64,000 bases of DNA from positions 3,036 to 67,035 of the forward strand of contig JBNLGJ010000066.1 of NCBI GenBank assembly GCA_050305995.1. The letters are read 5' to 3'. A model generated the notes under the pieces. It had not been told where the DNA came from and made no database searches. It saw nothing but the letters and a program-made list of their open reading frames with translations. This DNA is from Cellvibrio sp. (GTDB taxonomy: Bacteria > Pseudomonadota > Gammaproteobacteria > Pseudomonadales > Cellvibrionaceae). The position numbers were made by a program, and so were the translations under genes. The first letter of the stretch is position 1; each line of letters begins with the position of its first letter. Positions 25,916 through 40,919 of this stretch are shown piece by piece.

Positions 25916-26277
25916 CTATCGCCTTAATAGAGAGGCTTCCATATTGAACTGTATCGTTTTTATATGATTATCAGTTGGCGACTGCATTCAATCATAATGC
26001 CGCCAAGGTAAATCCCGAATAGTCCTGTACCCAGACGTTTTCAGGGAGGGAATGGATCATTCTATGGTGAATGAAAACATCGAAAAAATTGCGAATTACA
26101 GCAATTTAGGAAAATAGTAGCCAACATATCGACTTCCCCACAGATAACATCTAATCTGCGCGAATTAGAAATGATTATGTTAAAGAGGTTTGGTGTAAAT
26201 TTGACCAAACAATCGTTGTTAAAATTGGCTGTGGATAAGCATTTTCTGAAAGGTGATTGTTAGCACACTAGAGGCAC

Positions 26278-26697
26278 ATGGACATATACAAGAAAATTCA
26301 GAAAGTTCGTGGTGGTTGTATCGCGGGGATCAAAGAGGCAAAGGTGGAGTCTGTAGAGTCAGCCGCCGAGCTATTTGGCCTTTCGAATGAAAGCGACATC
26401 TATAAAAACATCGAGCGCGCTGAAGCTATAGAGGTTTTAAGGAACGTCCTCCATAAAGACATGGCCTATAGCATAAAAATCATGTCTTCCGAAAAGGCTA
26501 AAAACCTGGCAGTGGAATTCGTAGATAATTTTGGAAAAGAGGCCAAATTCTATACCAATGGTGAATATGGCAAACCACGGAAAAAGCCAAATTTTGGTCC
26601 ATCATGGTCACCAGCTACCGATGCAACTTTCGATACTGGTGTAATTGTAATAATTAAAGAGATGGTTGGTTGTGTTTGGTTTACAGATGAAGACTAG
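26278..26697 (+). CDS. Hypothetical protein in cassette-like context (possible immunity-type protein)
   Basis: AT-rich 139-aa ORF with GAGG RBS; C-terminal ATDATFDTGVIV....GCVWFTDED; preceded by GTTAGCA (26259-26265). Confidence 0.75.
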   Translation: MDIYKKIQKVRGGCIAGIKEAKVESVESAAELFGLSNESDIYKNIERAEAIEVLRNVLHKDMAYSIKIMSSEKAKNLAVEFVDNFGKEAKFYTNGEYGKPRKKPNFGPSWSPATDATFDTGVIVIIKEMVGCVWFTDED

Positions 26698-26787
26698 TAC
26701 TAACAATTCAAAGTGGCTGGCGTGGTAAAGTTGCCACCTCTTTTTATTCCAAAAAACCGCCATCTTCATCCGTTTGATGCGTTAGGC
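26698..26787 (+). other. Degenerate attC-like integron recombination site
   Basis: R''-like TACTAAC right after the stop, CAAA/TTTG inner arms, AAGTTG/CATCTT, terminal TTTTT-ATTCC-AAAAA hairpin, and R' GTTAGGC (26781-26787). Confidence 0.6.
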
Positions 26788-26866
26788 TTTGATTCCCGCT
26801 CCCGTGGATATTCAAATACTTGAGCTTCTTTTGCATCCTCATAACAATCATAGGTAGGTTACACGG

Positions 26867-27199
26867 ATGAATTGGCGCCCACTTGCAACCTGCAAGCAAG
26901 AGTCATTTGCAAGAGGCGTAGTTTTTCGCTTCCCAGCAAAAGCTCCATTTGAGCAAACTGTTGACTTCATGATTATTGAAGATCATGACTCGCCAACCTT
27001 TTATAAACTTATATGTTCTTCTGGATATCACGCTGGCCAAACAGAGTTAGTCTTTCCAATAGAAGCAAAGCATGAAGCCGGCGGAGTCTCAGTGGCTTGG
27101 TTAAAGAAAAATTGGCAAACCTGGGTTTACCCGGAGTGTGAAGCTGAAAACGTTAATTACGCCAATTGCTATCCCGCTGGCCATGTCGAAAAAACCTAA
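26867..27199 (+). CDS. Imm45-like immunity protein
   Basis: RG..FRFPA..PFEQTVDFM...SSGYHAG....FP.EA.....S..WL..NW..WVYPEC pattern; stop overlaps the R''-like ACCTAAC (27194-27200). Confidence 0.7.
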   Translation: MNWRPLATCKQESFARGVVFRFPAKAPFEQTVDFMIIEDHDSPTFYKLICSSGYHAGQTELVFPIEAKHEAGGVSVAWLKKNWQTWVYPECEAENVNYANCYPAGHVEKT

Positions 27200-27349
27200 C
27201 GTCTATTTTTTGCGAGGCTCATAGCATGTGCAATACATGTAATTGATGAAAAAGCTATCAGCAACTGAGCTGCGTTTAATGGCTGGCAAATCGAGTATTC
27301 GAGCCAAACTGGCTTCTTGACTTGGTATCCATTTGGATATGAGAAACTT

Positions 27350-27643
27350 ATGCATGAGTTATTTGCTTTGTCACTATCGCCACTACTTGTATTTGCATGG
27401 CAGCCACTGCGTATTTTATGCGTGCTAATTCTTATGCTCTTGCCCTGTTTGTTTAATTGGCATAAAAAATCTGCGAAATTGATTATGGCGATAAGTGCAT
27501 TGCCTTGGATGTTATTTTTGTATACAGAGGCTAGCATCCCTGTGTCATCCAATATTCGTGTAGATTTAGCTATTTTGGGGCCCATTTATTTGCTTAGTGC
27601 CATAATATGGGTTGTCATATTTGTTGCGGGAAAGTTTCGATGA
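27350..27643 (+). CDS. Small membrane protein with NIRVDL motif (start 27317 or 27350)
   Basis: Three or four hydrophobic segments, SNIRVDLAIL; ATGA overlap with the next gene. Confidence 0.6.
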   Translation: MHELFALSLSPLLVFAWQPLRILCVLILMLLPCLFNWHKKSAKLIMAISALPWMLFLYTEASIPVSSNIRVDLAILGPIYLLSAIIWVVIFVAGKFR

Positions 27644-28452
27644 AAACTGTTTTTGGATTATTAGGTTTGGTTGGTGTTGTGTTTTTGATGGCTTTTGGGG
27701 GGAGTGGAAATAATGGGGTGTCTAGCTTACAGGTGATTAATGCTGCAAATGCTGCAGCACCGGAGAATAATTCAACAGCATCTCAAGGCGTCAATGTGTT
27801 GGTGTGCCATAAGGATAAAAATAAAAAGTTGCAACAAAACTACAGTGTTGATGCCTCAAGAACCTTTCCCTTGATCCAAAGTTCAGCGCTAGCCATGAAG
27901 GGGATAAGTACTGCTGTGAAAAGTCAGCCTCAAGCATCACAAACAGCTTTTGGTATCACGGTGGCGACAGTGTTGGCGACTCCGGCACTTGCCTCAACAC
28001 AGCTGATGTACGCAACCTGTTCGGTGCTTGATAAGAACAATAAAGCCGTGTGTGGATATGATACATCTTCGTCGGTTTTTGGCTTCAAGCAAGAAACAAA
28101 AGCTGAAGAAAGCATGAAATACACTCGTAAAATAACGCTTAATAATGGCGATAAAATTACAGTAAGGGGGAAAGAAGGCAATCCAAATGATGTAGAAATA
28201 GTTACAAAAGAAACTACAACGGCTTGGCATCGTGATCAGAGTGGACAAGAAATGATGGATATTTACTCATCAAACAGCCTACATGTCGTGGCTGTAGAAA
28301 ATCCAGACTGCTCAGGAACGCTAACGGCAGAGTGGATTGATGGAACAAAAGTAAACGCCAAGTGGCAGTATATAGGCGAAAATAAAACATCAGGAACCTT
28401 TGTGTCAGCGTCGCCAAAGCAAGCAGCACTGAATTTTACGCTGAGTTGGTAG
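27640..28452 (+). CDS. Hypothetical exported protein
   Basis: 270-aa AT-rich ORF, hydrophobic N-terminus MKTVFGLLGLVGVVFLMAFGGSG, coupled to the upstream stop. Confidence 0.65.
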   Translation: MKTVFGLLGLVGVVFLMAFGGSGNNGVSSLQVINAANAAAPENNSTASQGVNVLVCHKDKNKKLQQNYSVDASRTFPLIQSSALAMKGISTAVKSQPQASQTAFGITVATVLATPALASTQLMYATCSVLDKNNKAVCGYDTSSSVFGFKQETKAEESMKYTRKITLNNGDKITVRGKEGNPNDVEIVTKETTTAWHRDQSGQEMMDIYSSNSLHVVAVENPDCSGTLTAEWIDGTKVNAKWQYIGENKTSGTFVSASPKQAALNFTLSW

Positions 28453-28459
28453 CATCGTT

Positions 28460-28954
28460 ATGTCATTACATTACACGGTGACGCTCAACTTAAGGCTTAA
28501 GCACGATTTGACCGTCATTGAAATTAGCGCATTAGACTACATCCTTAATGGAAATGGCGGGCCGCCTACTGCACTGCCGAAGCACGAATTTTTCAAAAAT
28601 GGCATTCCTAAATATCTACATTGGCAATCTTACATGCGTTTCCCAACTGGAAGCTGGCGCTCTGAATTTTGGCGGGGGGTAAATGCTCCAGGCAGCTCTG
28701 ATGCAGATGAAGTCAATTACGGCGTAAATTTATTGTTGCCTGGCCAAAAACTGGAAGGGGCTTTGAGTGAGCTCCCCTTTTTTTGCTGGCTTGCAACCAT
28801 CAGTAGCTCGGTAGGCTATGTTGGCGCGGCTACTTGCGAAGATGATTCTATTGGAATGCCAATATTTATTTTATTCATCCACGACCAAGCATTAAAAATA
28901 AGTAGCCTGTCTAACGATATTATTATGGAATCTGCTGAAGGAATATCGGGTTAA
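28460..28954 (+). CDS. Hypothetical protein
   Basis: 164-aa ORF starting 7 nt after the previous stop; no family recognised. Confidence 0.6.
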   Translation: MSLHYTVTLNLRLKHDLTVIEISALDYILNGNGGPPTALPKHEFFKNGIPKYLHWQSYMRFPTGSWRSEFWRGVNAPGSSDADEVNYGVNLLLPGQKLEGALSELPFFCWLATISSSVGYVGAATCEDDSIGMPIFILFIHDQALKISSLSNDIIMESAEGISG

Positions 28955-28979
28955 GTTACTGGCTTAACATAAAATATTT

Positions 28980-29897
28980 TTAAATTCGGCTTAAGCTTTT
29001 AATCGCTAGCGCTGCTGCCGATGTCCTGTTCTCCACCCCAAGCTTTTTAAATATCTGCTCCAGGTGTTTATTCACTGTACGCGGGCTCATCTCCAGAATC
29101 TGGCCGATTTCGCGGTTGGTTTTGCCCTTGGCAATCCACAGCAGCACATCGGCTTCGCGCTGGGTTAGCGGAAAATCCTGGCGCAGCGAATCGGCGGCAG
29201 CCTCGGCTTGCTGTATGGGTTTTAGGCGTAAGAGATATTCGCGCTGATCAATTAAATTCAATAATTCCAGCTGTAAACCCTGTGCCTGGGCATCCAGATT
29301 CAGCTGGTGTCCGGTTTCCGGCTTGTGTGCCAGCCAGTGCGCAATTTGCGCCTGCAATGCAGTTGGCAGTTGCTGTTCGCTGTCAAGCGCACCTTTCAGG
29401 TTAAGGTGCTGGTAGACCTGCGGCGTTGCCCAGCGCAAACGCCCGGTGGCATCCAGGGTGAGTAAAAACTGGCCGGCGGAGTCCAGGGCCGCGCGCGCCT
29501 GTTGGTTAATTCGCGCATTGGTCAGGTGTACACGCATGCGTGCAATTAACTCTTCGGCGCGAATCGGTTTGGTTACATAATCCACGCCACCGGCATTTAA
29601 TCCCATTAACACATGCTCGGTATCGCTGAGGCCGGTCATAAAAATAATCGGCGTGTCAGCCAGTTGGGGTTTGCGTTTTAAATGGCGGCAGGTATCAAAG
29701 CCATTCATATTGGGCATAAGGGCATCGAGCAAAATAATATCCGGGCGAATATTTTCACTGATGGTCAGCGCCTGGGTGCCCTCCAGCGCTACCAGCACGG
29801 TAAAGTCTTCCTCTTCCAGCAGGTCGTTAAGCATGTGAATACTGTCGAGTGAATCGTCCACCACCATAACTATGGGCTTGCTGCTTTTGGATTTCAC
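28980..29897 (-). CDS. Response regulator (REC + LuxR-type HTH)
   Basis: VMVVDD, ILLDALMP, IIFMTG, DYVTKP; C-terminal LTQREADVLLWIAKGKTNREIGQILEMSPRTVNKHLEQIFKKLGV. Confidence 0.92.
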   Translation of the reverse strand: MKSKSSKPIVMVVDDSLDSIHMLNDLLEEEDFTVLVALEGTQALTISENIRPDIILLDALMPNMNGFDTCRHLKRKPQLADTPIIFMTGLSDTEHVLMGLNAGGVDYVTKPIRAEELIARMRVHLTNARINQQARAALDSAGQFLLTLDATGRLRWATPQVYQHLNLKGALDSEQQLPTALQAQIAHWLAHKPETGHQLNLDAQAQGLQLELLNLIDQREYLLRLKPIQQAEAAADSLRQDFPLTQREADVLLWIAKGKTNREIGQILEMSPRTVNKHLEQIFKKLGVENRTSAAALAIKSLSRI

Positions 29898-29902
29898 TCT
29901 AT

Positions 29903-32900
29903 TTACTCCAGTTGGTCCGAAGATTCGAAATGGTTAACGCCTTCGAGTAGATTAATTATTTTTTCAAATTGATATTGCTTGGTCAGTTGCTGGATTTGTG
30001 TGAGCAGTTGGCCGTTGTTTTGCGGCGGCAGTTTTTGTAAAAAATCCAGTAAACCTTTGCGGTGACCAATGCGCGCTAATTGCAACAGGGTTTCTTTTAT
30101 CTCCGGCGATACAGCATTGGCTGTTGATACGTCCGCGTCCTCTGCGGGTGACAGCGGCGATTGAGGTTCGTCCTGCTGATAATTCCACGCCAGCCCCAAT
30201 TGTTGCTGCAGATGTTCCAGCAGCAGCGGCAGTCGCAATGGCTTAATGATGTAAGCCTGGTGCAGGGGTGGGGCGTCGGGCGAATTGCCATATTGCTCGC
30301 GGCCTTCACTGGCATCGGCGGATACCATAATTACCGGCAGCTTAAATTGCTGCGCGCGCAGCGCTTGGAGTAGCTCCCAACCGCTCTGGCCAGGCATGTT
30401 GACATCCAGCATCAGCAGCGAGGGTAAATTATTAGCGGCTCGCGCTGTCTCCAGCAGCGGCAGCAGCTCCTGGGCATTGGCCAGGTCGAGAATGTCAAAG
30501 CCGAGTGGCTCCAGCAGCGCGCGCATTAACTGGCGGTGGGAGTCTTCATCATCGACTAGCCATAAAGTTTTACGCGCACCTTGGTAGCCGTAAATTTGCT
30601 GGCTGTGCTGAACTATAGGGTCGCGCCTGGGGTGATCGATACGCGCCAGCATTAAGCTGGCTTTAAAACAGCTACCCTGGCCGGGGTTGCTGGTAACGGC
30701 AATATCGCCGCCCATAATTTCACTGAGCAAGCGGGTGATAGTGAGGCCAAGGCCGGTGCCGGCAATGGTGGAGCCGGGTTTGCGCACCCGCTCAAAGGGG
30801 CGGAAGATGCGCTCGAGGTTTTCGCCGCTGATACCCTCGCCAGTATCGGTCACCGAAAATTCTGCCACTTGACTGCGGTAGCGCACTTTAAAGCATACGC
30901 TGCCGCGCTCGGTGTATTTGATGGCATTGGAGAGCAGGTTAATTAAAATTTGGCGCAGGCGCTTTTCATCGGTTTTAACCAGCTCTGGCAAGCGGTCGTC
31001 GCACTGGTAAATAAAGCTCAGGCCTTTGGCCTCGGCTTGCAGGCGGAACATCTGCACCAATTGTTCTAGCAATAGCGCTATAGCTACCTGGTCCTGGTGT
31101 AAGTCCAAACGTCCCGCTTCAATTTTAGAAATATCCAGCAGGCCTTCAATTAAATCGGCCAGGTGCTCGCCGCTGCGGCGAATCACCGCCAGGGCATCGC
31201 GCCTGTGCTCGGGCATGCGCGGATCTTTTTCCAATAGTTGCGCATAGCCGAGTATGGCGTTAAGTGGTGAGCGCAACTCGTGGCTGATGCCGGTGAGGTA
31301 GCGGCTTTTGGCCAGGTTGGCCGCTTCGGCTTTTTCTTTGGCCAATTGCAGCTCGCGGTCGGTGCGCTCGTGGGCTTCAATTTCCTCCATTAACAGGCGC
31401 GTCTGCCGCTGCGACTCCTCCTGGGCAAAATGTCGGCTCTCCTGCGCCAACACAAACAGCCAGCTCACCACGCCGGTGATAATAACCAGCAGAAAAAACA
31501 CCTTCCACAGGGTGGCTTCCAATAAGGCGGCGGTTTCCAGCGTTGCAAAGGGGGTTTGAAAATAAATGAGCGAGAGCAAAATAGCGGAGAGACCGTTAAT
31601 CACCACAATCAAAATAAAAAACTGGCCCAGGCGTGGGTTGATGCGCGCAATTAAGGATTGGGGTAAAAAATGCTTAAAAAAATCGCGCATTTGCGAACTG
31701 TAGTCCGCCCCGGGTTTGCAGTAATCCTGGCAGCGGGCGTCTAGCGAGCAGCAGAGTGAGCAGATATGTCCGGCATAGGCCGGACAGTAAGTCATATCCT
31801 CGGCTTCAAACCTGTGCTCGCAAATACAACAGGTATTGAGTGCATCAACAGTTTCATGTGCGGCATGCAGCGGTGGGCGGGCTAAGTAGTAACGTCCTTG
31901 GGTGCGCCAGGCGATGAGTGGTGCCAGCAAGAGGGCAGTGGCCAGTGCAATAAAGTGGGAGAGGGCGCGCGCCACCTCGCCCAATAGGCCTGTGTGACAG
32001 AGGATGCCCAGCAGTGAGGCGCCGAGCATAGCGCCAAAGCCGACTGGGTTTATATCGTAGAGGTGCGCGCGTTTAAATTCTATGTGCGGCGGGCTCAGGC
32101 CCAGGGGTTTATTAATAATTAAATCGGCCACCAATGCACCCAGCCAGGCCACCGCGACTATGCCGTAATAGCCCAGGGTTTGTTCCAGGGCGCGGTAGAC
32201 CCCCAGCTCCATTAACAGTAGCGCAATGGCGACGTTAAATACCAACCAGACGACGCGCCCTGGGTGACTGTGGGTGAGGCGCGAAAAAAAATTGGACCAG
32301 GCGATAGAGCCAGCATAGGCGTTAGTGACATTAATTTTGAGCTGGCTGAGGATGACAAATATCCCCGCCATGGACAGCGCCGCCTGAGGTGAATTGGCAA
32401 TATAGCTAAAGGCAACCATATACATGCGCGTTGGGTCTGCAGCGAAATGTGCATCTATGCCGTGGCCAATTGCGAGCACGGCGAGGAAAGAACCGGCGAG
32501 GATTTTAATTGCACCTATCACAATCCAGCCGGGGCCACCGGCGATAAGCGCCGCCCACCAGTGGAGTTTTTTACCGGGTTTGGCCGGGGGCAAAAAGCGC
32601 AAAAAATCTACCTGCTCGCCAATTTGCGCAATCAGCGAAAATACCACCGCCGAGGCGGCGCCAAATAGCAGCAGGCTTGCGCTGTTATCGCCAGGGTTTG
32701 CCGGAGCTAATTGCGCGCTGCCTTGATACTGGGTCCAGCTTTCCACCGCGCTGGCATCGGCGTAAAGGATAAACACGAAGGGCGCCAGCTGCAGCAGTAC
32801 CCACAGCGGCTGGCTCCACAATTGAAAGCGGCTGATAAAGGTGATGCCGTGGGTTACCAGCGGAATTATCACGATGGAACTCAGTAAATAGCCCCAGGCA

Positions 32901-33346
32901 AGGGGCAACTGCCAGAGCAGTTCCATGGCCATGGCCAGTATGGCCGCCTCCAGCGCGAAAAAAATAAAGGTGAAGGAGGCGTAAATCAGCGAGGTAATGG
33001 TGGAGCCTATATAGCCAAAACCTGCGCCGCGGGTGAGCAAATCAATGTCTACACCATACTTGGCGGCGTAGTAACTAATGGGGATAGCCGAGAAAAAAAT
33101 AATCAAACTAACGGCGGCGATGGCCAGGGTTGCGTTATTAAAACCATAGTGCAGGGTAATGGCCCCACCAATGGCCTCCAGCGCTAAAAACGAAATAGCC
33201 CCCAGCGCCGTAGTGGCCACCCGCCCATAGGACCAGCGGCGCGCACTTTTGGCGGTAAAGCGCAGTGCGTAATCCTCCAGGGTTTGGTTGGCCACCCACT
33301 GGTTGTAATTGCGGCGCACGCGAAAAATATGTTGTTTGGCAGTCAT
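29903..33346 (-). CDS. Hybrid sensor histidine kinase with N-terminal permease-like (NCS1-type) multi-TM domain
   Basis: Start MTAKQHIFRVRRNYNQWVANQTLEDYALRF; 12 or more TM segments; Cys-rich linker; H-box SHELRSPLNAILG, N-box NLLSNAIKYT, DTGEGI, GTGLGL; REC LMLDVNMPG. Confidence 0.9.
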   Translation of the reverse strand: MTAKQHIFRVRRNYNQWVANQTLEDYALRFTAKSARRWSYGRVATTALGAISFLALEAIGGAITLHYGFNNATLAIAAVSLIIFFSAIPISYYAAKYGVDIDLLTRGAGFGYIGSTITSLIYASFTFIFFALEAAILAMAMELLWQLPLAWGYLLSSIVIIPLVTHGITFISRFQLWSQPLWVLLQLAPFVFILYADASAVESWTQYQGSAQLAPANPGDNSASLLLFGAASAVVFSLIAQIGEQVDFLRFLPPAKPGKKLHWWAALIAGGPGWIVIGAIKILAGSFLAVLAIGHGIDAHFAADPTRMYMVAFSYIANSPQAALSMAGIFVILSQLKINVTNAYAGSIAWSNFFSRLTHSHPGRVVWLVFNVAIALLLMELGVYRALEQTLGYYGIVAVAWLGALVADLIINKPLGLSPPHIEFKRAHLYDINPVGFGAMLGASLLGILCHTGLLGEVARALSHFIALATALLLAPLIAWRTQGRYYLARPPLHAAHETVDALNTCCICEHRFEAEDMTYCPAYAGHICSLCCSLDARCQDYCKPGADYSSQMRDFFKHFLPQSLIARINPRLGQFFILIVVINGLSAILLSLIYFQTPFATLETAALLEATLWKVFFLLVIITGVVSWLFVLAQESRHFAQEESQRQTRLLMEEIEAHERTDRELQLAKEKAEAANLAKSRYLTGISHELRSPLNAILGYAQLLEKDPRMPEHRRDALAVIRRSGEHLADLIEGLLDISKIEAGRLDLHQDQVAIALLLEQLVQMFRLQAEAKGLSFIYQCDDRLPELVKTDEKRLRQILINLLSNAIKYTERGSVCFKVRYRSQVAEFSVTDTGEGISGENLERIFRPFERVRKPGSTIAGTGLGLTITRLLSEIMGGDIAVTSNPGQGSCFKASLMLARIDHPRRDPIVQHSQQIYGYQGARKTLWLVDDEDSHRQLMRALLEPLGFDILDLANAQELLPLLETARAANNLPSLLMLDVNMPGQSGWELLQALRAQQFKLPVIMVSADASEGREQYGNSPDAPPLHQAYIIKPLRLPLLLEHLQQQLGLAWNYQQDEPQSPLSPAEDADVSTANAVSPEIKETLLQLARIGHRKGLLDFLQKLPPQNNGQLLTQIQQLTKQYQFEKIINLLEGVNHFESSDQLE

Positions 33347-33860
33347 AGCAGTGATCGCAATTGTCAGGCGCTGGATACATTTCGCGCGGCTAATCCCCGG
33401 ATATCCGAGATTTTTGTTTGGCCTCTTGCCTTGTAATTGTGCGTATGTTTGCGGTGACGATTGGCTTTGGTGCAACGCCAATTAGGTGGGATTGCGCCTC
33501 AGGCGCCTGTTGTGCGGTAAAAACTCCTTGCTGGTTTCCCCTGCTCTTTCTCCACTCAAAAGCTGTACCAAGTTTGGCTATTGGTGCGCACCCGCTTTTT
33601 CCCCCACGTTCGCCGCTTTTTTAAGCGCCTCTCTATTCAAAAAGAAAATACCCGGCCTTAAGCCGGCTGCCTATGGGGTAAATGACGTAGGTCACTGGGG
33701 TATTTATCGAATGGTTGTAAACCCTCGTCCCCACTAGATTGGGCAGCGTGGAAGAGGCGAGGGCTAAAGCCGCAAAGGCAGCACCGAGGTTTTTCCAGGA
33801 TTCACCACCAGCACTTTACGGGTAACCACTTTTTGGCTGGCAACTTTTTTTAGCAGAGCC

Positions 33861-33907
33861 TTTTTTGAGCAGCAATTTTTTTGAGCAGCAATTTTTTTGA
33901 ATAGCAA
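33861..33907 (+). repeat. 16-bp tandem repeat (x3) in the urtA leader
   Basis: T6-GAGCAGCAA, T7-GAGCAGCAA, T7-GAATAGCAA; a degenerate fourth copy at 33845-33860. Confidence 0.85.
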
Positions 33908-33954
33908 TTTGGGAAATTTCAACACTCGTTAATCAACGCCAATAGAACTGAGGA

Positions 33955-35181
33955 TTGACCATGAAACTAAAACCCCTGAAAACCTTTAAGGCCGGACTGT
34001 TCGCGCTAGCGACCAGCTGCGCGCTAATGACCGCCCAGGCGGCCGAGGTAAATACCACCGGCCTGGCTGTGACTGACACCACGGTTAAAGTGGGCATTCT
34101 CCACTCGGTGACCGGCACCATGGCCATCAGCGAAACCGGCTCAGTGCAGGCGGAAAAACTGGCCATCGATCAGATTAATGCCATGGGCGGTGTGCTCGGG
34201 CGCAAAATTGAATATATCCAGGAGGACGGCGCCTCCGACTGGCCGACCTTTGCCGAAAAATCCAAAAAACTTTTAGTCAACGATAAGGCTGCTGCGGTGT
34301 TCGGCTGCTGGACGTCCGCCTCGCGCAAAGCGGTGTTGCCAATTTTTGAGCAGTACAACGGCATGCTCTACTACCCCACCTTTTACGAGGGCCTGGAGCA
34401 GTCACCTAACGTGATTTACACCGGCCAGGAAGCGACCCAGCAAATTATTGCCGGTATCGACTGGGTGGTAAAAACCAAGGGTGCTAAATCCTTTTACTTG
34501 CTGGGTTCGGATTACATCTGGCCGCGCACCTCCAACAAGATCGCGCGCAAGCACATTGAAAAACTGGGTTTGAAAGTAGTGGGCGAAGAGTACTACCCCC
34601 TGGGTCACACCCAGTTCAACTCGGTGATCAACAAAATCAAACTGAAAAAGCCCGATGTGATTTACGCGATTGTGGTGGGCGGTTCCAACGTAGCCTTCTA
34701 CAAGCAGCTTAAAGCGGCGGGCATTGATATGACCAAAGAGAAGCCTCTGGTGCTGACCATTTCAGTAACCGAAGATGAGGTGCTGGGTATTGGTGGTGAA
34801 AACATGGTGGGCGCCTACGCCGCAATGAAATACTTCCAAAGCCTGCCTAACGACAACAACAAAAAATTTGTTGAAGCCTTTAAAGCCAAATACGGCAAAG
34901 ACATAGTGATCGGCGACGTGACCCAAGCGGCTTACCTTGGCCCCTGGTTGTGGAAGGCTGCGGTGGAAAAAGCCGGCTCCTTTGACATCGATAAGGTGCG
35001 CGAAGCCTCGCCTGGTATTGAACTGACCACCGCGCCGGAAGGCTATGTGAAAGTTCACCCCAATCATCACCTCTGGTCCAAAACCCGTATCGGCCACGCC
35101 CGCGCTGACGGCCAATACGATGTGGTTTACGAGACCAAAGATCTGATCGAACCCAACCCATTCCCCGAAGGTTATCAATAA
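33955..35181 (+). CDS. urtA: Urea/short-chain amide ABC transporter substrate-binding protein
   Basis: VGILHSVTGTMAISE, EDGASDWPTFAEK, FGCWTSASRKAVLP, YPTFYEGLEQS, DYIWPRTSN. Confidence 0.93.
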   Translation: MTMKLKPLKTFKAGLFALATSCALMTAQAAEVNTTGLAVTDTTVKVGILHSVTGTMAISETGSVQAEKLAIDQINAMGGVLGRKIEYIQEDGASDWPTFAEKSKKLLVNDKAAAVFGCWTSASRKAVLPIFEQYNGMLYYPTFYEGLEQSPNVIYTGQEATQQIIAGIDWVVKTKGAKSFYLLGSDYIWPRTSNKIARKHIEKLGLKVVGEEYYPLGHTQFNSVINKIKLKKPDVIYAIVVGGSNVAFYKQLKAAGIDMTKEKPLVLTISVTEDEVLGIGGENMVGAYAAMKYFQSLPNDNNKKFVEAFKAKYGKDIVIGDVTQAAYLGPWLWKAAVEKAGSFDIDKVREASPGIELTTAPEGYVKVHPNHHLWSKTRIGHARADGQYDVVYETKDLIEPNPFPEGYQ

Positions 35182-35189
35182 CCTGGAGT

Positions 35190-35211
35190 GCAGCCCGCGC
35201 GAGCGGGCTGC
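35190..35211 (+). other. Intercistronic hairpin after urtA
   Basis: GCAGCCCGC-gcga-GCGGGCTGC with no U-tract. Confidence 0.6.
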
Positions 35212-35330
35212 CATGTTTGTAGCTGTGCCATGTGTGTAGTTGTGACAAGATTGTAGCTCTGTAATGCGCTTGCGCTAACGGATTTTTAAAGATTTTTTTG
35301 TCGACAGTATTTGACTGAGAGGGCCGAGTC

Positions 35331-36257
35331 ATGTTTGCGGAATACAGTACCTCGGAATTGCTATCCATTTTTGCCATGCAGGGCGTAGCCGGATTAATTC
35401 TATTTTCGGTGTTTGTACTTATGGCCCTGGGATTGGCCATTATTTTTGGGCAGATGGGTGTGATCAATATGGCCCACGGCGAATTTATGATTCTCGGTGC
35501 CTATGTCACTTATCTCACCTCCCATGTGTTTTCTACCTATCTCCCCGATTACTTCAGTTTCTATTTTATTTTGGCGATGGTGCTCGCGTTTTTAGCCTCG
35601 GGCGCACTGGGGGCTTTTGTCGAATGGGCGATGATCCGGCATTTGTATAACCGACCGCTGGACACCCTTTTGGCAACCTGGGGTTTGAGCCTGATTTTGC
35701 AGCAGCTGTATCGCACGGTATTTGGCGCGCGTGAAGTGGGCGTAACCCTGCCCGATTGGCTGATGGGTTCCTACCAGTTGACTGACTCTATTGAATTGCC
35801 CATTAACGGTTTATTTGTGATGTGCCTGGCACTGGGTATTTCGCTCACAGTGGCGGTGTTGATGTATCGCTCGCGCTGGGGTGTGCAGGTGCGCGCGGTG
35901 GTGCAAAACCGCGCTATGGCCGGCGCTGTGGGCATTAACACCGCCAAGGTGGATCGCATTACTTTTGCCCTGGGTTGCGGTATCGCCGGTGTCGCTGGCA
36001 GCGCCTTTACCATGATTGGCTCCACTGGCCCCACCTCTGGCCAGCTGTACATAGTGGATACTTTTTTGGTGGTGGTATTTGGCGGCGCCTCGAGTTTGCT
36101 CGGCACTATTGCCTCGGCCTTTGGTATTTCCCAGGCGCAATCCACTATGGAATTTTTTATCAGCGGCTCCATGGCCAAGGTGCTTACCCTGTTGTTTGTT
36201 GTGTTTGTGCTGATGCTGCGCCCCCAGGGCTTGTTCACCCTGAAAGTGCGCCGCTAA
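35331..36257 (+). CDS. urtB: Urea ABC transporter permease
   Basis: ALGLAIIFGQMGVINMAHGEF, RPLDTLLATWG, YIVDTFLVVVFGG, RPQGLF. Confidence 0.92.
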   Translation: MFAEYSTSELLSIFAMQGVAGLILFSVFVLMALGLAIIFGQMGVINMAHGEFMILGAYVTYLTSHVFSTYLPDYFSFYFILAMVLAFLASGALGAFVEWAMIRHLYNRPLDTLLATWGLSLILQQLYRTVFGAREVGVTLPDWLMGSYQLTDSIELPINGLFVMCLALGISLTVAVLMYRSRWGVQVRAVVQNRAMAGAVGINTAKVDRITFALGCGIAGVAGSAFTMIGSTGPTSGQLYIVDTFLVVVFGGASSLLGTIASAFGISQAQSTMEFFISGSMAKVLTLLFVVFVLMLRPQGLFTLKVRR

Positions 36258-36273
36258 GAGGAGTGCCGAGATT

Positions 36274-37524
36274 ATGTCCTATCAAAATTTTGCTGCGTTG
36301 TTTTCCAAACAGGACCGCTGGGCCTATTTAATTCTGGGTGTGCTGCTGGTTGTTGTTTTGCCCCTGTCCATGGATATTTTTCGCCTCAACCTGGTGGGTA
36401 AATATTTGTGTTACGCCTTTGTTGCTGTGGGCCTGGTGCTCTGCTGGGGTTACGGCGGTATTTTAAGCCTGGGCCAGGGGGTGTTTTTTGGTTTGGGCGG
36501 CTACGCCATGGCGATGTTTTTAAAACTGGAAGCCTCTGACCCAGTGAGCACCAAAATCCAATCCACCCCCGGTATTCCCGATTTTATGGATTGGAATCAG
36601 ATCACTGAATTGCCGCTATTCTGGGAACCCTTCCACAGTCTCGGATTTACCATATTGGCGATTTTTGTGGTGCCGGCAATTTTCGGTTATATCCTCGGCG
36701 TGGCCATGTTCAAGCGCCGTGTAGGTGGGGTTTACTTTGCCATTATCACCCAGGCGATTGCCGCCATTCTCACCATTCTGATTATCGGTCAGCAGGGCTA
36801 CAGCGGCGGCGTTAACGGCATCACCGATTTGCGCACACTGCACGGCTGGGATATTCGCACTGACAATGCCAAATATGTATTTTACTTCCTCGCGGTGGCG
36901 CTGCTGTTTGCCTGCCTGGTGTGCGCGCAATTTATTCGCAAAAGCAAACTGGGCCGCCTGCTGGTGGCTATGCGCGATAAAGAGGATAGGGTGCGCTTCT
37001 CCGGTTACGATGTGGCTAACTTTAAAATCTTTGTCTTCTGTGTTGGCGCTATCTTTGCGGCCATTGGCGGTGCCATGTTTACCCTGCAGGTGGGGTTTAT
37101 GTCACCCACCCTGGTGGGCATAGTGCCCTCCATTGAAATGGTAATTTTCTGCGCGGTGGGCGGCCGCCTGTCAATTATAGGCGCAGTCTACGGCACCCTG
37201 ATTGTCTGCGCGGCTAAAACCAGTTTTTCCGAGAGCTTTCCCGAACTCTGGCTGTTTGCCATGGGCGGTTTGTTTATCGCCGTGGTTATGGCCTTCCCCA
37301 ATGGGTTGGCAGGGCTTTACGTCAGCCATATAGCACCGCAATTGCAAAAACTCTGGAGCAAAATCAGCAGCCGCACCGAGCTTGCTAATACGGCGCCGCT
37401 GGCATCGCCCAGTGCCATTGAGGAGCCGGCTGCTGCAGATCCTGTCGTTGTAGCGCCAGCCAAAACCAAAGTAGAAACACTACAGGTTTCATCACATCAA
37501 GGAGTTGTCCATGAGCCCCAGTAA
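36274..37524 (+). CDS. urtC: Urea ABC transporter permease
   Basis: WGYGGILSLGQGVFFGLGGYAMAMFLKL, YFAIITQA, VPSIEMVI.CAVGGR. Confidence 0.92.
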   Translation: MSYQNFAALFSKQDRWAYLILGVLLVVVLPLSMDIFRLNLVGKYLCYAFVAVGLVLCWGYGGILSLGQGVFFGLGGYAMAMFLKLEASDPVSTKIQSTPGIPDFMDWNQITELPLFWEPFHSLGFTILAIFVVPAIFGYILGVAMFKRRVGGVYFAIITQAIAAILTILIIGQQGYSGGVNGITDLRTLHGWDIRTDNAKYVFYFLAVALLFACLVCAQFIRKSKLGRLLVAMRDKEDRVRFSGYDVANFKIFVFCVGAIFAAIGGAMFTLQVGFMSPTLVGIVPSIEMVIFCAVGGRLSIIGAVYGTLIVCAAKTSFSESFPELWLFAMGGLFIAVVMAFPNGLAGLYVSHIAPQLQKLWSKISSRTELANTAPLASPSAIEEPAAADPVVVAPAKTKVETLQVSSHQGVVHEPQ

Positions 37525-38260
37525 TACAGATTTTGTGTTAGCGGTTGAAGGCCTGACTGTCTCCTTCGATGGCTTTAAAGCAGTTAACGATTTGAGTTTT
37601 TATGTGGATGAAAATGAAATCCGCGTAATTATCGGCCCCAACGGCGCAGGCAAAACCACAGTGCTGGATTTGATTTGCGGTCGCACCAAGGCCACCGAGG
37701 GCTCGATTAAATTCCGCAGCCGCGAACTGACCAAATTAAAAGAGCACGACATAGTGAAAGCGGGCGTAGGGCGCAAGTTCCAAAACCCGTCGATTTATGG
37801 CGACCTGACGGTGTTTGAAAACCTGGAGATTTCCTTCCCGCGCGGGCGCTCGGTTTTTGGTGCGCTTATGTTCAAGCGCGACGCTGAGGTAATCAACAAA
37901 GTGCACGAAGTGGCCAAGATGATTTTCCTTGAGGAGTTGTTGGAGATGCAGGCGGAGCTGCTCAGTCACGGGCAAAAACAGTGGCTGGAAATTGGCATGC
38001 TGCTGATTCAGGACCCGGACCTGTTAATGCTCGATGAACCTGTGGCGGGCATGTCGGTGGGCGAGCGCCAGCAGACCGCGGAGCTGTTGCGCCGCATCAC
38101 CAAAGACCGCTCGGTCATTGTGATCGAACACGATATGCAGTTTGTGGCGCAGATCGCCGACAAGGTGACGGTGCTGCACCAGGGCAAGATTCTTGCCGAA
38201 GGTTCGGTGGACAAGGTTAAAAATGATCCCAAGGTGATCGAGGTTTACTTAGGACATTAA
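37511..38260 (+). CDS. urtD: Urea ABC transporter ATP-binding protein
   Basis: GPNGAGKTT, GRKFQNPS, LSHGQKQWLEIGMLL, LDEPVAGMS. Confidence 0.93.
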   Translation: MSPSNTDFVLAVEGLTVSFDGFKAVNDLSFYVDENEIRVIIGPNGAGKTTVLDLICGRTKATEGSIKFRSRELTKLKEHDIVKAGVGRKFQNPSIYGDLTVFENLEISFPRGRSVFGALMFKRDAEVINKVHEVAKMIFLEELLEMQAELLSHGQKQWLEIGMLLIQDPDLLMLDEPVAGMSVGERQQTAELLRRITKDRSVIVIEHDMQFVAQIADKVTVLHQGKILAEGSVDKVKNDPKVIEVYLGH

Positions 38261-38295
38261 TTCTGAGTGTGCCAACCAGACTGAGAGGAATTTCT

Positions 38296-38985
38296 ATGTT
38301 AGCTGTATCAGATTACCGCGTAAGCTATGGCCAGAGTGAAGTGCTGCACGGGTTAAATTTTGAAATCAAACCGCGCGAAATTGTCGCGGTGATGGGCCGC
38401 AACGGCATGGGCAAAACTACCCTGATGAAATCGCTGATGGGGGTTATTCCCAGCAGCGGTGGCAGTGTCAAATTGCAAGGCGAGGAGGTCAGCCAGCTAA
38501 AAAGTTTTCAGCGCGTTGCCAGTGGTTTTGGTTTTGTGCCGCAAGGGCGAATGATTTTTTCCAGCATGACGGTTAAAGAAAATATCGAAACCGGCTTAAC
38601 CACCACCAACCGGCGAACCGTGCCCAGCGAGTTGTACGACCTGTTCCCGGTGCTGCTGGAAATGCGCAACAGGCGCGGCGGCAACCTCTCCGGCGGCCAG
38701 CAACAGCAGCTGGCTATTGCCCGCGCACTGGCCAGCAACCCCAAAATGCTGCTGCTGGACGAACCCACCGAAGGTATTCAGCCATCCATTATTCGCGAGA
38801 TGGGCCGCACCTTAAAAACCATTCGCGACCAGCGCGGCCTGTCGATTGTGGTGAGTGAGCAGGTGTTAAGTTTTGCCCTGGATATTGCCGACCGGATTCT
38901 GGTGATTGAGAAGGGCGAGATAGTGCACGAGGAGCTGCGCGCAAATGTCAACGAGGCAAAAGTCGCCGCTTATTTGTCTGTGTAA
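38296..38985 (+). CDS. urtE: Urea ABC transporter ATP-binding protein
   Basis: GRNGMGKTT, VPQGRMIF, LSGGQQQQLAIARAL, DEPTEGIQPSII; GAGAGG RBS before ATG 38296. Confidence 0.93.
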   Translation: MLAVSDYRVSYGQSEVLHGLNFEIKPREIVAVMGRNGMGKTTLMKSLMGVIPSSGGSVKLQGEEVSQLKSFQRVASGFGFVPQGRMIFSSMTVKENIETGLTTTNRRTVPSELYDLFPVLLEMRNRRGGNLSGGQQQQLAIARALASNPKMLLLDEPTEGIQPSIIREMGRTLKTIRDQRGLSIVVSEQVLSFALDIADRILVIEKGEIVHEELRANVNEAKVAAYLSV

Positions 38986-39214
38986 TCTACATTTTTTTTA
39001 ATTTCTTTACGGCTGGTGCTAGCCCAAGGCATCAGCCGTTTTTTTATTGTGCAATCTGAATGGTGTAGTGGAAATTTGAGTGGGCTTTTGGTGGCTTGCG
39101 TCTATACGTCAAATAACGCAGCCGGGCGGGACATTTGTCGTATTGTTGCACTGCCGGCGCGCGCTGATACTGCAGGGGAGATGAACTTGTGCCCACAGAC
39201 TCAGGAGTCGCACC

Positions 39215-40447
39215 ATGGCTGAAACCATTATTAAAATTGACTTGAACAAAACCCCCTACGAAAACGAGATGATTCACAACCGCTGGCATCCCGATATCCC
39301 CATGGTGGCTACGGTAAAGCCAGGTGCTGATTTTATTATCGAGTGCTACGACTGGACCGGCGGCCAGATTAAAAATGACGACTGCGCCGATGACGTGCGC
39401 GATGTGGATTTAAGCCAGGTGCACTTCCTCTCCGGCCCAGTGGGTGTGGAGGGTGCAGAGCCAGGTGATTTGCTGGTGGTGGATATTCTCGATATTGGCG
39501 CTTTCCAGGAGAGCCTTTGGGGTTTTAACGGTTTCTTCTCCAAAAACAACGGCGGCGGTTTTTTAACGGAGCATTTCCCCGAAGCGCAAAAATCCATTTG
39601 GGATATCAACGGCATGTTTACCAAATCGCGCCATGTACCCAATGTGGAATTCGCCGGCCTTATTCACCCCGGCCTGATTGGCTGCCTGCCCTCCAAAGAG
39701 ATGCTGCTGGAGTGGAACACGCGCGAAAAAGAACTTTACGACACCGAGCCGGAGCGCGTGCCTGCACTTGCCACCTTGCCCTACGCCGACACCGCGCACA
39801 TGGGCAAAATGACTGGCGATGCGGCCAAGGCGGCAGCGGCTGAAGGGGCGCGCACTGTGCCACCGCGCGAGCACGGCGGTAACTGCGACATTAAGGATTT
39901 ATCGCGCGGCTCCAAAATTTATTTTCCGGTTTACGTTAAAGGCGGCGGCCTGTCAGTGGGCGACCTGCACTTCAGTCAGGGCGATGGCGAAATTACTTTC
40001 TGCGGCGCTATCGAAATGGCTGGCTGGATTCACCTGCGCGTCAATCTGATTAAAGATGGTATGGCCAAGTACGGTATTAAAAACCCCATCTTCAAACCCA
40101 GCCCCATTGCGCCCAAGTACGATGACTACTTGATCTTCGAAGGTATTTCGGTGGATGAATACGGCGAGCAGCATTACCTGGATGTGCATGTCGCCTATCG
40201 CCAGGCCTGCTTGAATGCGATTGAGTATTTGACCAAGTTTGGATACTCCAAAGCGCAGTCCTACGCAATTCTCGGCTGCGCCCCTGTGCAGGGGCATATC
40301 TCCGGCGTGGTGGATATCCCCAACGCTTGCGCCACTCTGTGGCTGCCCACGGATATCTTTGATTTTGATATCAACCCCAGCGCCGAGGGGCCGAGCAAAA
40401 AGGTAACGCCGGGTATGGATATTCCCCTGTCACCTGACAAGGAGTAG
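39215..40447 (+). CDS. fmdA: Formamidase (acetamidase/formamidase family)
   Basis: HNRWHPDIP, ECYDWTGGQI, PPREHGGNCDIK, GDLHFSQGDGEITFCGAIEM, GVVDIPNAC. Confidence 0.95.
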   Translation: MAETIIKIDLNKTPYENEMIHNRWHPDIPMVATVKPGADFIIECYDWTGGQIKNDDCADDVRDVDLSQVHFLSGPVGVEGAEPGDLLVVDILDIGAFQESLWGFNGFFSKNNGGGFLTEHFPEAQKSIWDINGMFTKSRHVPNVEFAGLIHPGLIGCLPSKEMLLEWNTREKELYDTEPERVPALATLPYADTAHMGKMTGDAAKAAAAEGARTVPPREHGGNCDIKDLSRGSKIYFPVYVKGGGLSVGDLHFSQGDGEITFCGAIEMAGWIHLRVNLIKDGMAKYGIKNPIFKPSPIAPKYDDYLIFEGISVDEYGEQHYLDVHVAYRQACLNAIEYLTKFGYSKAQSYAILGCAPVQGHISGVVDIPNACATLWLPTDIFDFDINPSAEGPSKKVTPGMDIPLSPDKE

Positions 40448-40523: not shown

Positions 40524-40550
40524 ATCAAGTTTTTTGTGCGAGACAGTTTT

Positions 40551-40919
40551 ATGCCTGTGTACGATTACAAATGCGCTGAGCACGGTTTGTTTTACGAATT
40601 GGCAAGTATGGATGATGCAGCTAAACCCTGCGCCTGCCCGACCTGTGGGGCACTCTCTGGCCGGGTGATTATGCTAGCACCGGAGTTTTTGGGAATGAAG
40701 GCGGAAAACCGCCAGGCTCATAGCCGCAATGAAGAGGCGCGGCATCAGCCGAAATTTTCTACGGTGGAATCGCGTTTAGAGGATAAAGCGCGGCGGGAGC
40801 ATAAACATGGCAAGGGCTGTGGCTGCGGCGATAAGCCGATTCGCCAATCCAAATTATTTTTTACCGCCGACGGTAAAAAAATGTTTCCGTCTATGCGCCC
40901 CTGGATGATCAGCCACTAA
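40551..40919 (+). CDS. fmdB: FmdB-family zinc-ribbon protein
   Basis: MPVYDYKCAEHG.F......CPTCG; C-terminal K.FP..RPWMISH. Confidence 0.88.
   Translation: MPVYDYKCAEHGLFYELASMDDAAKPCACPTCGALSGRVIMLAPEFLGMKAENRQAHSRNEEARHQPKFSTVESRLEDKARREHKHGKGCGCGDKPIRQSKLFFTADGKKMFPSMRPWMISH

Follow-up and report, generated by a model that had tools for sequence, protein, structure and literature searches.

A hybrid histidine kinase with an NCS1-like membrane domain, predicted to control adjacent amide/urea uptake and formamidase genes

A stretch of 64,000 nucleotides from Cellvibrio sp. (Gammaproteobacteria; GenBank assembly GCA_050305995.1, contig JBNLGJ010000066.1, positions 3,036 to 67,035), here called the window, carries the gene for a hybrid sensor histidine kinase in which a permease-like membrane domain is fused to HisKA, HATPase_c and receiver (REC) domains. 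The gene for a LuxR-type response regulator follows on the same strand, and the two genes face a divergent Urt-like ATP-binding cassette (ABC) importer operon that leads into a formamidase gene. Here we propose, with a probability of about 0.7, that the kinase and its regulator control these adjacent amide/urea uptake and formamidase genes and respond to such compounds. The analysis shows the architecture, the fold, the synteny, the enrichment and placement of an operator-like palindrome and the link of kinase-less relatives to amidases, whereas the direction of regulation is inferred, and confidence is lower for the exact ligand, for transport by the membrane domain and for the route of phosphotransfer. 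The pair is a real two-component system, widespread and to all appearance unstudied, and it represents a variant of the transceptor-type sensor kinases.

The genes at the locus are the following.

29903-33346, reverse strand: hybrid sensor histidine kinase, 1147 amino acids (aa), stop codon included in the coordinates (open reading frame and translation, Pfam, homologues)
28980-29897, reverse strand: response regulator with REC, PAS-like middle domain and LuxR/GerE helix-turn-helix (Pfam), starting 5 nt past the kinase stop codon
33961-35181, forward strand: substrate-binding protein of UrtA/FmdD type (PF13433, 445 bits; TIGR03407, 559 bits with a cut-off of 493)
35331-38985, forward strand: urtB, urtC, urtD and urtE, two permease and two ATPase genes (Pfam BPD_transp_2 twice, ABC_tran twice)
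39009-39039, forward strand: terminator-like hairpin with a T run after urtE (12-pair stem in the scan)
39215-40447, forward strand: formamidase gene fmdA (PF03069, 622 bits; NF045496 'formamidase', 788 bits with a cut-off of 500)
40536-40919, forward strand: gene for an FmdB-family zinc-ribbon protein (TIGR02605, NF053663, PF09723)

The kinase reading frame begins at ATG 33346 and stays open further, to TTG 33481; the ATG is taken as the start because homologues of many genera align from residue 1 of this form. A region of 614 bp separates it from the ATG of urtA at 33961. A sequence-only reading of this DNA had described about 500 aa of multi-TM permease-like sequence joined to HisKA-HATPase-REC, accompanied by a REC-LuxR regulator and divergent from urtA. 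The follow-up bears this out: Pfam domains and an AlphaFold2 model agree on the architecture, the regulator gene lies 5 nt downstream, and the urtABCDE-fmdA-fmdB operon faces the pair. Features that the sequence-only reading had left out are an eight-Cys domain and two additional membrane helices ahead of the HisKA domain, the conserved tail at the C-terminus of the kinase, a third domain in the regulator, and the placement of fmdA-fmdB at the far end of the importer operon.

Conserved neighbourhood and operator-like palindrome

A one-genome-per-species scan, searched by tblastn with the window proteins, gave 80 loci from Alpha-, Beta- and Gammaproteobacteria. The kinase adjoins an Urt-like ABC operon in 70 of the 80 species genomes, and the regulator gene is adjacent to the kinase gene at 74 of the loci. 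An amide-type binding protein is encoded at 49 loci, 41 of them together with FmdA, and a urea-type UrtA at 21; the other 10 have no Urt-like binding protein within the fetched flank, several of these being cut contigs. The binding protein of the window is 73-90% identical to the FmdA-associated, amide-type proteins and approximately 40% identical to those of the urea type. At one locus (L058) ureD-A-B-C and ureE come after the urea-type operon, and extra CN-hydrolase amidases occur in the operons of Bradyrhizobium, Alcanivorax and Zhongshania. The family is also carried on plasmids; the kinase matches 534 plasmid records, and 342 of these are from Klebsiella. The one Klebsiella module examined keeps the same divergent layout and ends in an AmiF-type formamidase (NF009803, 602 bits) that is not homologous to FmdA. 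In a tree of the kinase N-terminal domains the type of neighbouring operon changes at least four times, and the window kinase falls in a nine-row clade whose members are all amide-type.

Alignment of the spacers of close relatives exposed ATGCGTCAAATGACGTAG, which generalises over three proteobacterial classes to a 7-2-7 palindrome, TACGTCA-N2-TGACGTA. With up to two mismatches the palindrome is present in 34 of 60 kinase-urtA spacers, which total 25 kb, and at 2 sites in the rest of those loci (1.16 Mb), for which chance alone would give approximately 4. Sites outside such spacers stand just upstream of fmdA in L002 and L005 (perfect sites, in the same place as that of the window), just upstream of a non-adjacent urtA in L050, L077, L047, L062, L076 and L080, and just upstream of the kinase gene in L031, L041, L042, L044, L045 and L064; two further sites in L042 are exceptions and were not placed. 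In the 23.9 kb of the Klebsiella locus the palindrome occurs once, inside the urtA-kinase spacer. The corresponding elements of the window are listed here.

33674-33689, forward strand: urtA-side operator-like site TGGGGTA-AA-TGACGTA, 270 bp ahead of the urtA gene, aligning in register with those of the close relatives L008 and L002
33701-33714, forward strand: conserved box TATTTATCGAATGG, a possible -10 region 11 nt past the operator, kept in gammaproteobacterial relatives
39105-39120, forward strand: fmdA-side operator-like site TACGTCA-AA-TAACGCA, with 2 mismatches, 95 bp upstream of fmdA and past the urtE hairpin
39132-39145, forward strand: second copy of the box, CATTTGTCGTATTG, again 11 nt past the operator

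The fmdA-side site is one of four with up to two mismatches in the 3.76-Mb genome and the sole one at the locus. What the two boxes have in common, 11 nt after each operator-like site, is YATTTRTCGWATKG. Neither the urtA-side nor the fmdA-side control region contains a consensus sigma-70 promoter, which fits activator dependence, and the layout would look like that of a LuxR-type activator with two target promoters, the regulator being the predicted binding protein. A search of 33300-39300 against Rfam with E up to 1 gave no match to any known riboswitch, guanidine classes included.

Two further features of the spacers were observed. In Alphaproteobacteria (L009, L012, L016, L037 and others) the palindrome is immediately followed by an element rich in TGC-N-GCA, such as TGCTGCAGCGCAAC. 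This element is similar to the PhaR box mapped upstream of SMb20609 in S. meliloti (PMC12542648), which suggests that carbon-storage status may feed the system in Alphaproteobacteria. In the window, three tandem T-rich units of 16 bp (TTTTTTTGAGCAGCAA) occupy 33845-33907, approximately 50 bp ahead of the urtA start; they are missing from the closest relatives, L008 and L002, and are therefore a strain-specific insertion in the long urtA leader, outside the conserved control region.

Domain order of the kinase and its membrane half

The kinase sequence divides into the following parts, given from N- to C-terminus.

31892-33274, reverse strand: NCS1-like LeuT-fold domain, approximately residues 25-485, with 12 transmembrane (TM) helices, the presumed ligand-sensing part (AlphaFold2, Foldseek, hhalign)
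31712-31840, reverse strand: Cys-rich beta domain, approximately residues 503-545 (Cys conservation; short beta strands at 503-529 in the model)
31430-31636, reverse strand: TM13 (approximately 571-597) and TM14 (approximately 603-639), leading into the kinase dimerisation helix (AlphaFold2 secondary structure)
31112-31312, reverse strand: HisKA (DHp) domain with the phospho-acceptor His689 (PF00512, E 2.3e-18; HELR motif at 689)
30647-30973, reverse strand: HATPase_c catalytic domain (PF02518, E 2.8e-25)
30227-30559, reverse strand: fused REC domain with the acceptor Asp981 (PF00072, E 5.7e-14; DVNMPG motif at 981)
29927-30109, reverse strand: conserved C-terminal helical tail, approximately residues 1080-1140 (tail alignment)

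The C-terminal half is that of a hybrid kinase, with HisKA (679-745), HATPase_c (792-900) and a Response_reg domain that carries its acceptor Asp (930-1016), all above the Pfam cut-offs. The fused REC retains the acidic pocket, the acceptor Asp and the conserved Lys, and by its sequence looks competent. Homologues are abundant: among the matches listed in the first search there were at least 8000 clusters at 90% identity.

The membrane domain was modelled with AlphaFold2 from a 61-row alignment of representatives of 50% clusters. For residues 1-640 the model reached a pLDDT of 92.4 and a pTM of 0.92, and it places 12 TM helices first, then a small beta-rich domain (503-543), two short helices and two more TM helices. 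Residues 1-640 have no sequence match in the PDB at E = 1, and the NCBIfam search was also empty. Structural comparison by Foldseek against the PDB put CodB first (7qoa; 20% identity, E 5.5e-10 to 3.1e-9, target TM score 0.73-0.79) and Mhp1 next (2jln/4d1a; target TM score 0.66-0.73), the top five matches all being CodB or Mhp1 entries, with Nramp, CAT, LeuT and the SSS members SiaT, NIS and SGLT2 ranked below NCS1. The earlier assignment to a LeuT/NCS1-like fold, offered as the point on which the proposal could fall, thus came through, with CodB and Mhp1 as the best solved matches.

Profile comparison to E. coli CodB with hhalign covered TM1-TM6 only, at a probability of 56%. It pairs CodB G29 with G49 of the kinase, F33 with F53, Q105 with T126, W108 with F129, F204 with L238 and A207 with Q241, and sets the D213-F-x-R-F motif of CodB against D247-F-L-R-F. 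The roles of the CodB residues, including the sandwich of the substrate between Trp108 (TM3) and Phe204 (TM6), are known from earlier work (PMC9379551). The kinase therefore shares with CodB (7QOA) and Mhp1 (2JLN) a 12-TM LeuT fold, the TM1 Gly at the helix break, the TM1 Phe, an aromatic residue at the TM3 site and D-F-x-R-F after TM6. It differs from them in having no PF02133 match, in the replacement of CodB Gln105 by Thr126, in extra invariant polar residues (E57, E133, Q241, E244, Q245, K337), and in the Cys-rich domain and kinase attached to it. The aromatic substrate pair of NCS1 is also not retained, since TM3 has Phe129 (Leu in some urea-type members) whereas TM6 has Leu238 (Met or Val in a few). 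At the Na2 site, Gly49 of TM1 is conserved, whereas the counterpart of the TM8 hydroxyls of CodB (Thr278/Thr279) falls where the register of the kinase is ambiguous. The fold and some of the landmarks are those of NCS1, but the nucleobase sandwich is gone. The polar residues of the pocket (E57, E133, Q241, E244, Q245, K337, N339 and N342) are invariant across the family, and such a pocket would suit a very small polar ligand.

No other part of the kinase is as well conserved as the membrane domain, with 74-82% identity among Cellvibrio, Marinobacter, Halopseudomonas and Alcanivoracaceae, and 131 of its positions, D-F-x-R-F among them, are nearly invariant across the 80 kinase-fused members. 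The domain that follows has eight near-invariant Cys (506, 509, 521, 529, 532, 533, 539 and 543) both in the 61-row alignment and at the 80 loci, which probably make two Zn(Cys)4 sites.

Relatives of the membrane domain also occur without a kinase. They are 34-47% identical to it over a match that includes the Cys domain; for P0189 and P0270 the profile matches extend over the Cys region, and the Cys domain is therefore probably part of the permease family and not a kinase-specific linker. P0189 (558 aa, 47% identical) is encoded 33 nt upstream of an amidase-signature enzyme, and the cluster contains in addition a LysR regulator, a CN-hydrolase, a second amidase and an enzyme of FmdA_AmdA type. 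An amidase of this kind also comes directly after P0270 (519 aa), with a PucR regulator alongside. Downstream of a copy on an Arthrobacter plasmid are genes for an aliphatic amidase (NF009802, 702 bits) and an AAA ATPase and then acs, a cluster that looks like an acetamide-to-acetyl-CoA route. The neighbours of P0203 and P0184 were uninformative, and P0204 is on a short contig by an ABC ATPase and a TetR gene. Judged by these clusters, the kinase-less proteins have the look of short-amide permeases of a family not described before. Those of L087 and L088 (metagenome contigs), L091 and L094 (Arthrobacter sp. U41 plasmid), 519-558 aa in length, are encoded immediately ahead of amidase genes, belong to no Pfam family and are annotated as hypothetical.

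The resemblance of these relatives to ordinary amide permeases in catabolic clusters speaks for an alternative in which the permease-like domain would itself import amides and signalling by the kinase would follow transport flux or the amide pool inside the cell, the PAS-like domain perhaps reading a cytoplasmic ligand; the protein would then be a true transceptor and not a receptor for external ligand alone. The 131 near-invariant positions and the D-F-x-R-F motif are as a retained transport cycle would give them, and the SLC5 domain of CbrA transports histidine (PMC13022988). However, a high-affinity ABC importer for the same substrates is encoded next door, and regulator activation by CrbS and CbrA is independent of transport by their SLC5 domains (PMC5715377). 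Nor does anything in the sequence distinguish transport from mere binding. A working importer is a real possibility, albeit one that we do not favour.

From kinase to regulator

The regulator is of NarL/FixJ type, with a REC domain (PF00072, 91.6 bits) and a GerE helix-turn-helix (PF00196, 69.3 bits), and its AlphaFold2 model has a pLDDT of 91.8. Between the two lies an extra domain of approximately 100 aa (145-227), modelled as strand-strand-helix-helix-strand-strand-strand, and it is this secondary-structure pattern that leads us to term it PAS-like. A profile search of the domain against the PDB gave designed repeat proteins only, a wide structural search was filled wholly by REC matches and so barely tested the domain, and the ESM Atlas gave weak PAS leads only (0.83). 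Downstream of the regulator, a stretch of low GC content (26000-29000; 0.42-0.47 compared with approximately 0.53 elsewhere) marks the end of the kinase-regulator operon.

The sequence-only reading had seen no Hpt domain in this protein. Pfam agrees: no match to PF01627 was found, and the NCBIfam matches of the kinase to TorS, ArcB and BarA, far below cut-off, end before the Hpt regions. The tail that follows the REC domain is approximately 100 residues long and carries the motif L..LA.IG[H/Y/F].[R/K]G; it matches no Pfam family above cut-off, and the clusters closest to it in the ESM Atlas consist of proteins without a name, 84-91 aa long. Its ARIGHRKG sequence was considered as a degenerate Hpt and rejected, with His1095 being Tyr or Phe in most relatives and the Pfam search empty; an Hpt cluster for the tail in the ESM Atlas scored at chance level only (0.77). 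As the His is not conserved, the tail is not an Hpt.

The tail was instead modelled in complex with the regulator, using alignments paired by genome and three controls, none of which was the kinase's own REC. The complex scored 0.64 and the best of the three controls 0.00. A score of 0.64 is reached by 58 of 80 solved complexes and by 2 of 110 mismatched pairs, counts that apply only roughly here because the alignments used for the complex were our own. The runs agree in at least 81% of contacts, with a partner pLDDT of at least 66, and bring tail residues 1089-1097 and 1124-1128 against alpha1, beta2 and alpha2 of the regulator REC. The model supports, but does not show, docking of the kinase tail on the regulator.

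A fuller version of our proposal would have the NCS1-like domain both carry and sense formamide-type amides, the tail act as a new docking module that tethers the alpha1-beta2-alpha2 face of the regulator, and the kinase phosphorylate the regulator directly, without an Hpt and with its own REC as a gate. Taken with all of these parts it is unlikely. The same may be said of its counterpart, a multistep phosphorelay from His689 to Asp981, on to an unlinked Hpt protein and from there to the regulator, with the tail serving the kinase's own REC, which we also regard as doubtful. For the relay stand the acidic pocket, acceptor Asp and Lys that the fused REC keeps, the ten Hpt matches elsewhere in the genome, including a stand-alone frame of 124 aa (G000:C84:40299-40538), and the lack of a REC-for-REC control in the docking model. 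On the other hand, at the 74 loci no further gene, whether for an Hpt protein or another, is conserved within or next to the module or downstream of the regulator, the tail cannot itself be the Hpt given its variable His, the tail sits on the partner regulator in the complex model, which was built from co-varying alignments paired by genome, and the annotation of the examined Klebsiella plasmid module has the kinase and regulator as its sole signalling genes.

Signal, rival readings and relation to known systems

According to the mechanism that we propose, a small amide (in this organism most probably formamide, with acetamide and urea as other candidates) would enter the central pocket of the 12-TM LeuT-fold domain, lined by the family-invariant F53, E57, T126, E133, Q241, E244, Q245, K337, N339 and N342. 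The conformational change would pass through the cytoplasmic eight-Cys domain and the TM13-TM14 hairpin to the DHp helix, where His689 would autophosphorylate. The phosphoryl group would then be transferred to the co-transcribed REC-PAS-like-LuxR regulator, kept close by the C-terminal tail of the kinase, whilst the fused REC (Asp981) would be a competing sink or gate, or would feed an unlinked Hpt protein. A regulator dimer would finally bind the 7-2-7 palindrome and activate the urtABCDE promoter and, separately, the fmdA-fmdB promoter.

Synteny, the shared operator, the kinase-less relatives beside amidases and the Klebsiella module with its AmiF-type formamidase all fit a link to urea or short amides. 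Which of these the window kinase senses was approached through its genome, which is 98.8% complete and contains no urease. A second, canonical urtABCDE operon (G000:C82:14000-30000, L093), whose urtA is 40% identical, is preceded by genes for a urea carboxylase and a GntR/FCD regulator. As there is no urease, the urea carboxylase probably provides the route of urea assimilation, controlled separately, and the contig of this second operon has no palindrome with up to two mismatches. Together with the amidase-linked relatives, these features favour formamide or another short amide over urea as the likely ligand here.

The contrary view, that the signal is urea, that the kinase is a urea sensor and that the formamidase rides on a urea-responsive operon, has in its favour the 21 of 80 members that face urea-type Urt operons, some of them followed by urease, a pocket with the same residues in both types, and a window binding protein that exceeds the TIGR03407 cut-off. 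It is difficult to reconcile with a genome in which urea has its own urt operon, carboxylase and GntR regulator, with a window operon that ends in a formamidase preceded by its own operator, with a kinase clade that is wholly amide-type, or with kinase-less relatives that accompany amidases and not ureases, and we judge it improbable. The comparison of amide-type and urea-type kinases yielded no residue that separates them universally. At positions 325 and 269 amide-type members have small residues and most urea-type members bulky ones, and positions 45, 341, 394 and 402/406/410 differ within particular clades only. None of these differences is universal, the type of neighbour changes only about 4 times on the tree, and they are no evidence of tuning to the ligand.

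That the Cys-rich domain is the true sensor, of redox state or metal, with the permease-like domain a mere anchor and the amide link a matter of stress or metal control, is very improbable, since the eight near-invariant Cys between membrane domain and kinase, which could suggest it, are covered by the matches of the kinase-less permeases and so probably belong to the permease family, 74-82% identity between genera is far beyond the need of an anchor, and operator and synteny tie the output to amide/urea genes.

A number of points weigh against control of the adjacent genes by an amide-sensing kinase, or against parts of it. The core pocket residues are identical at amide-type and urea-type loci, so that sequence alone does not decide between amide and urea. 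Residues 1-640 match no Pfam family up to E = 10, the NCS1 model PF02133 included; the pocket residues were located by a profile alignment that is weak (56%, TM1-TM6), and the TM8 motif K337-I-N-V-T341-N342 fits CodB in two registers in pairwise comparison. With Leu238 in place of the TM6 sandwich aromatic, the pocket chemistry as aligned differs from that of the characterised carriers. At the urtA-side site (33674-33689) the right half matches the palindrome exactly, but the left half is degenerate, with 4 mismatches. A competent-looking fused REC without an Hpt in the kinase, and with a stand-alone Hpt frame elsewhere in the genome, allows more than one route to the regulator, and the tail might fold back on the kinase's own Asp981 REC domain. 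In S. meliloti the promoter of the orthologue is bound by PhaR (PMC12542648), and other inputs thus exist in some species. Finally, our literature search found no functional study of the kinase family, whether of ligand binding, transport, phosphotransfer or regulation.

The earlier view that the ligand and phosphorelay route are uncharacterised agrees with that search and with a 2025 paper in which the S. meliloti genes SMb20609/SMb20610 are listed as PhaR-controlled and the orthologue SMb20609 is called 'functionally uncharacterized' (PMC12542648). The start of the orthologue, at pSymB 1622168, is 95 nt past the PhaR box that the paper assigns to SMb20609. In a tolC mutant the neighbouring transporter genes SMb20602-20605 showed reduced expression, as did genes for the uptake of nitrate and ammonium (PMC2912261). 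Apparent literature matches from Yersinia and Acinetobacter were irrelevant to the family and were set aside.

Fusions of transporter and kinase have precedents in CbrA, which the sequence-only reading named with its SLC5 domain, and in CrbS (PMC13022988, PMC5715377). CrbS/CrbR (MxtR/ErdR; Vibrio, Pseudomonas) likewise joins a LeuT-superfamily domain to HisKA-HATPase-REC without an Hpt and has a LuxR-type partner, and CrbR binds an inverted repeat just upstream of the uptake and catabolism promoters for one small nutrient (PMC5715377), the same logic as predicted for the palindrome here. The sensor of CrbS, however, is an SLC5/SSS domain acting via STAC and PAS, whereas that of the window kinase is NCS1-like and acts via the eight-Cys domain and TM hairpin; the signal and regulon of CrbS/CrbR are acetate, acs and actP and not amides, the ACTU motif is unlike the palindrome, and CrbR has no PAS-like middle domain. 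CbrA of Pseudomonas, in which a single polypeptide combines a histidine kinase with a secondary-transporter domain, is the textbook 'transceptor' (PMC13022988). It differs in its SLC5-STAC-PAS sensor, in having no fused REC, in the sigma-54 activator CbrB as its partner, and in a global carbon/nitrogen role as opposed to control of a single operon. The invariant K337 of TM8 may be comparable in part to CbrA K196, a residue of the transporter domain proposed to drive the cycle (PMC13022988). In common with the SLC5-STAC group the window kinase has an N-terminal transporter domain fused to HisKA-HATPase and a dedicated response regulator, but Pfam finds neither PF00474 (SSF) nor STAC in it, and its linker is a Cys-rich beta domain with two TM helices. 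Ks-Amt5 of Kuenenia (PMC5764959) also reuses the fold of a nitrogen-compound transporter as a fused histidine kinase sensor, but one of Amt/Rh and not LeuT type that senses ammonium.

Transporter-fused sensor kinases are rare and are known almost only from the SLC5-STAC group (CbrA, CrbS), to which the present family would add a second, independent fusion of NCS1 type. The same end, switching on an amidase and amide uptake in the presence of short amides, is served by AmiC/AmiR of the Pseudomonas aeruginosa amidase operon and by FmdB of Methylophilus. AmiC shares the type I periplasmic-binding-protein fold with UrtA/FmdD, and it acts in the cytoplasm as a ligand sensor, sequestering the antiterminator AmiR; the system is not known to involve a membrane sensor, phosphorylation or a DNA operator. 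The operator palindrome, the layout with two promoters, the kinase-less relatives by amidase genes, the argument from the genome against urea and the tail-regulator docking model are new here. The predicted operator, the two-promoter layout and the predicted docking are directly testable handles, and the amidase-linked relatives point to an undescribed amide permease family.

The family is very common in Alpha-, Beta- and Gammaproteobacteria, including Bradyrhizobium, Sinorhizobium (SMb20609/SMb20610) and hundreds of Klebsiella plasmids, and it probably answers how proteobacteria detect formamide, short amides or urea and induce Urt/Fmd importers, formamidase and, in some lineages, urease. On the conjugative IncF plasmid pA1705-qnrS of Klebsiella pneumoniae (MG764551.1; L095) the kinase, regulator, urtABCDE and AmiF-type formamidase genes lie between mobile-element genes, and the module adjoins the clpK/hsp20 heat-resistance genes.

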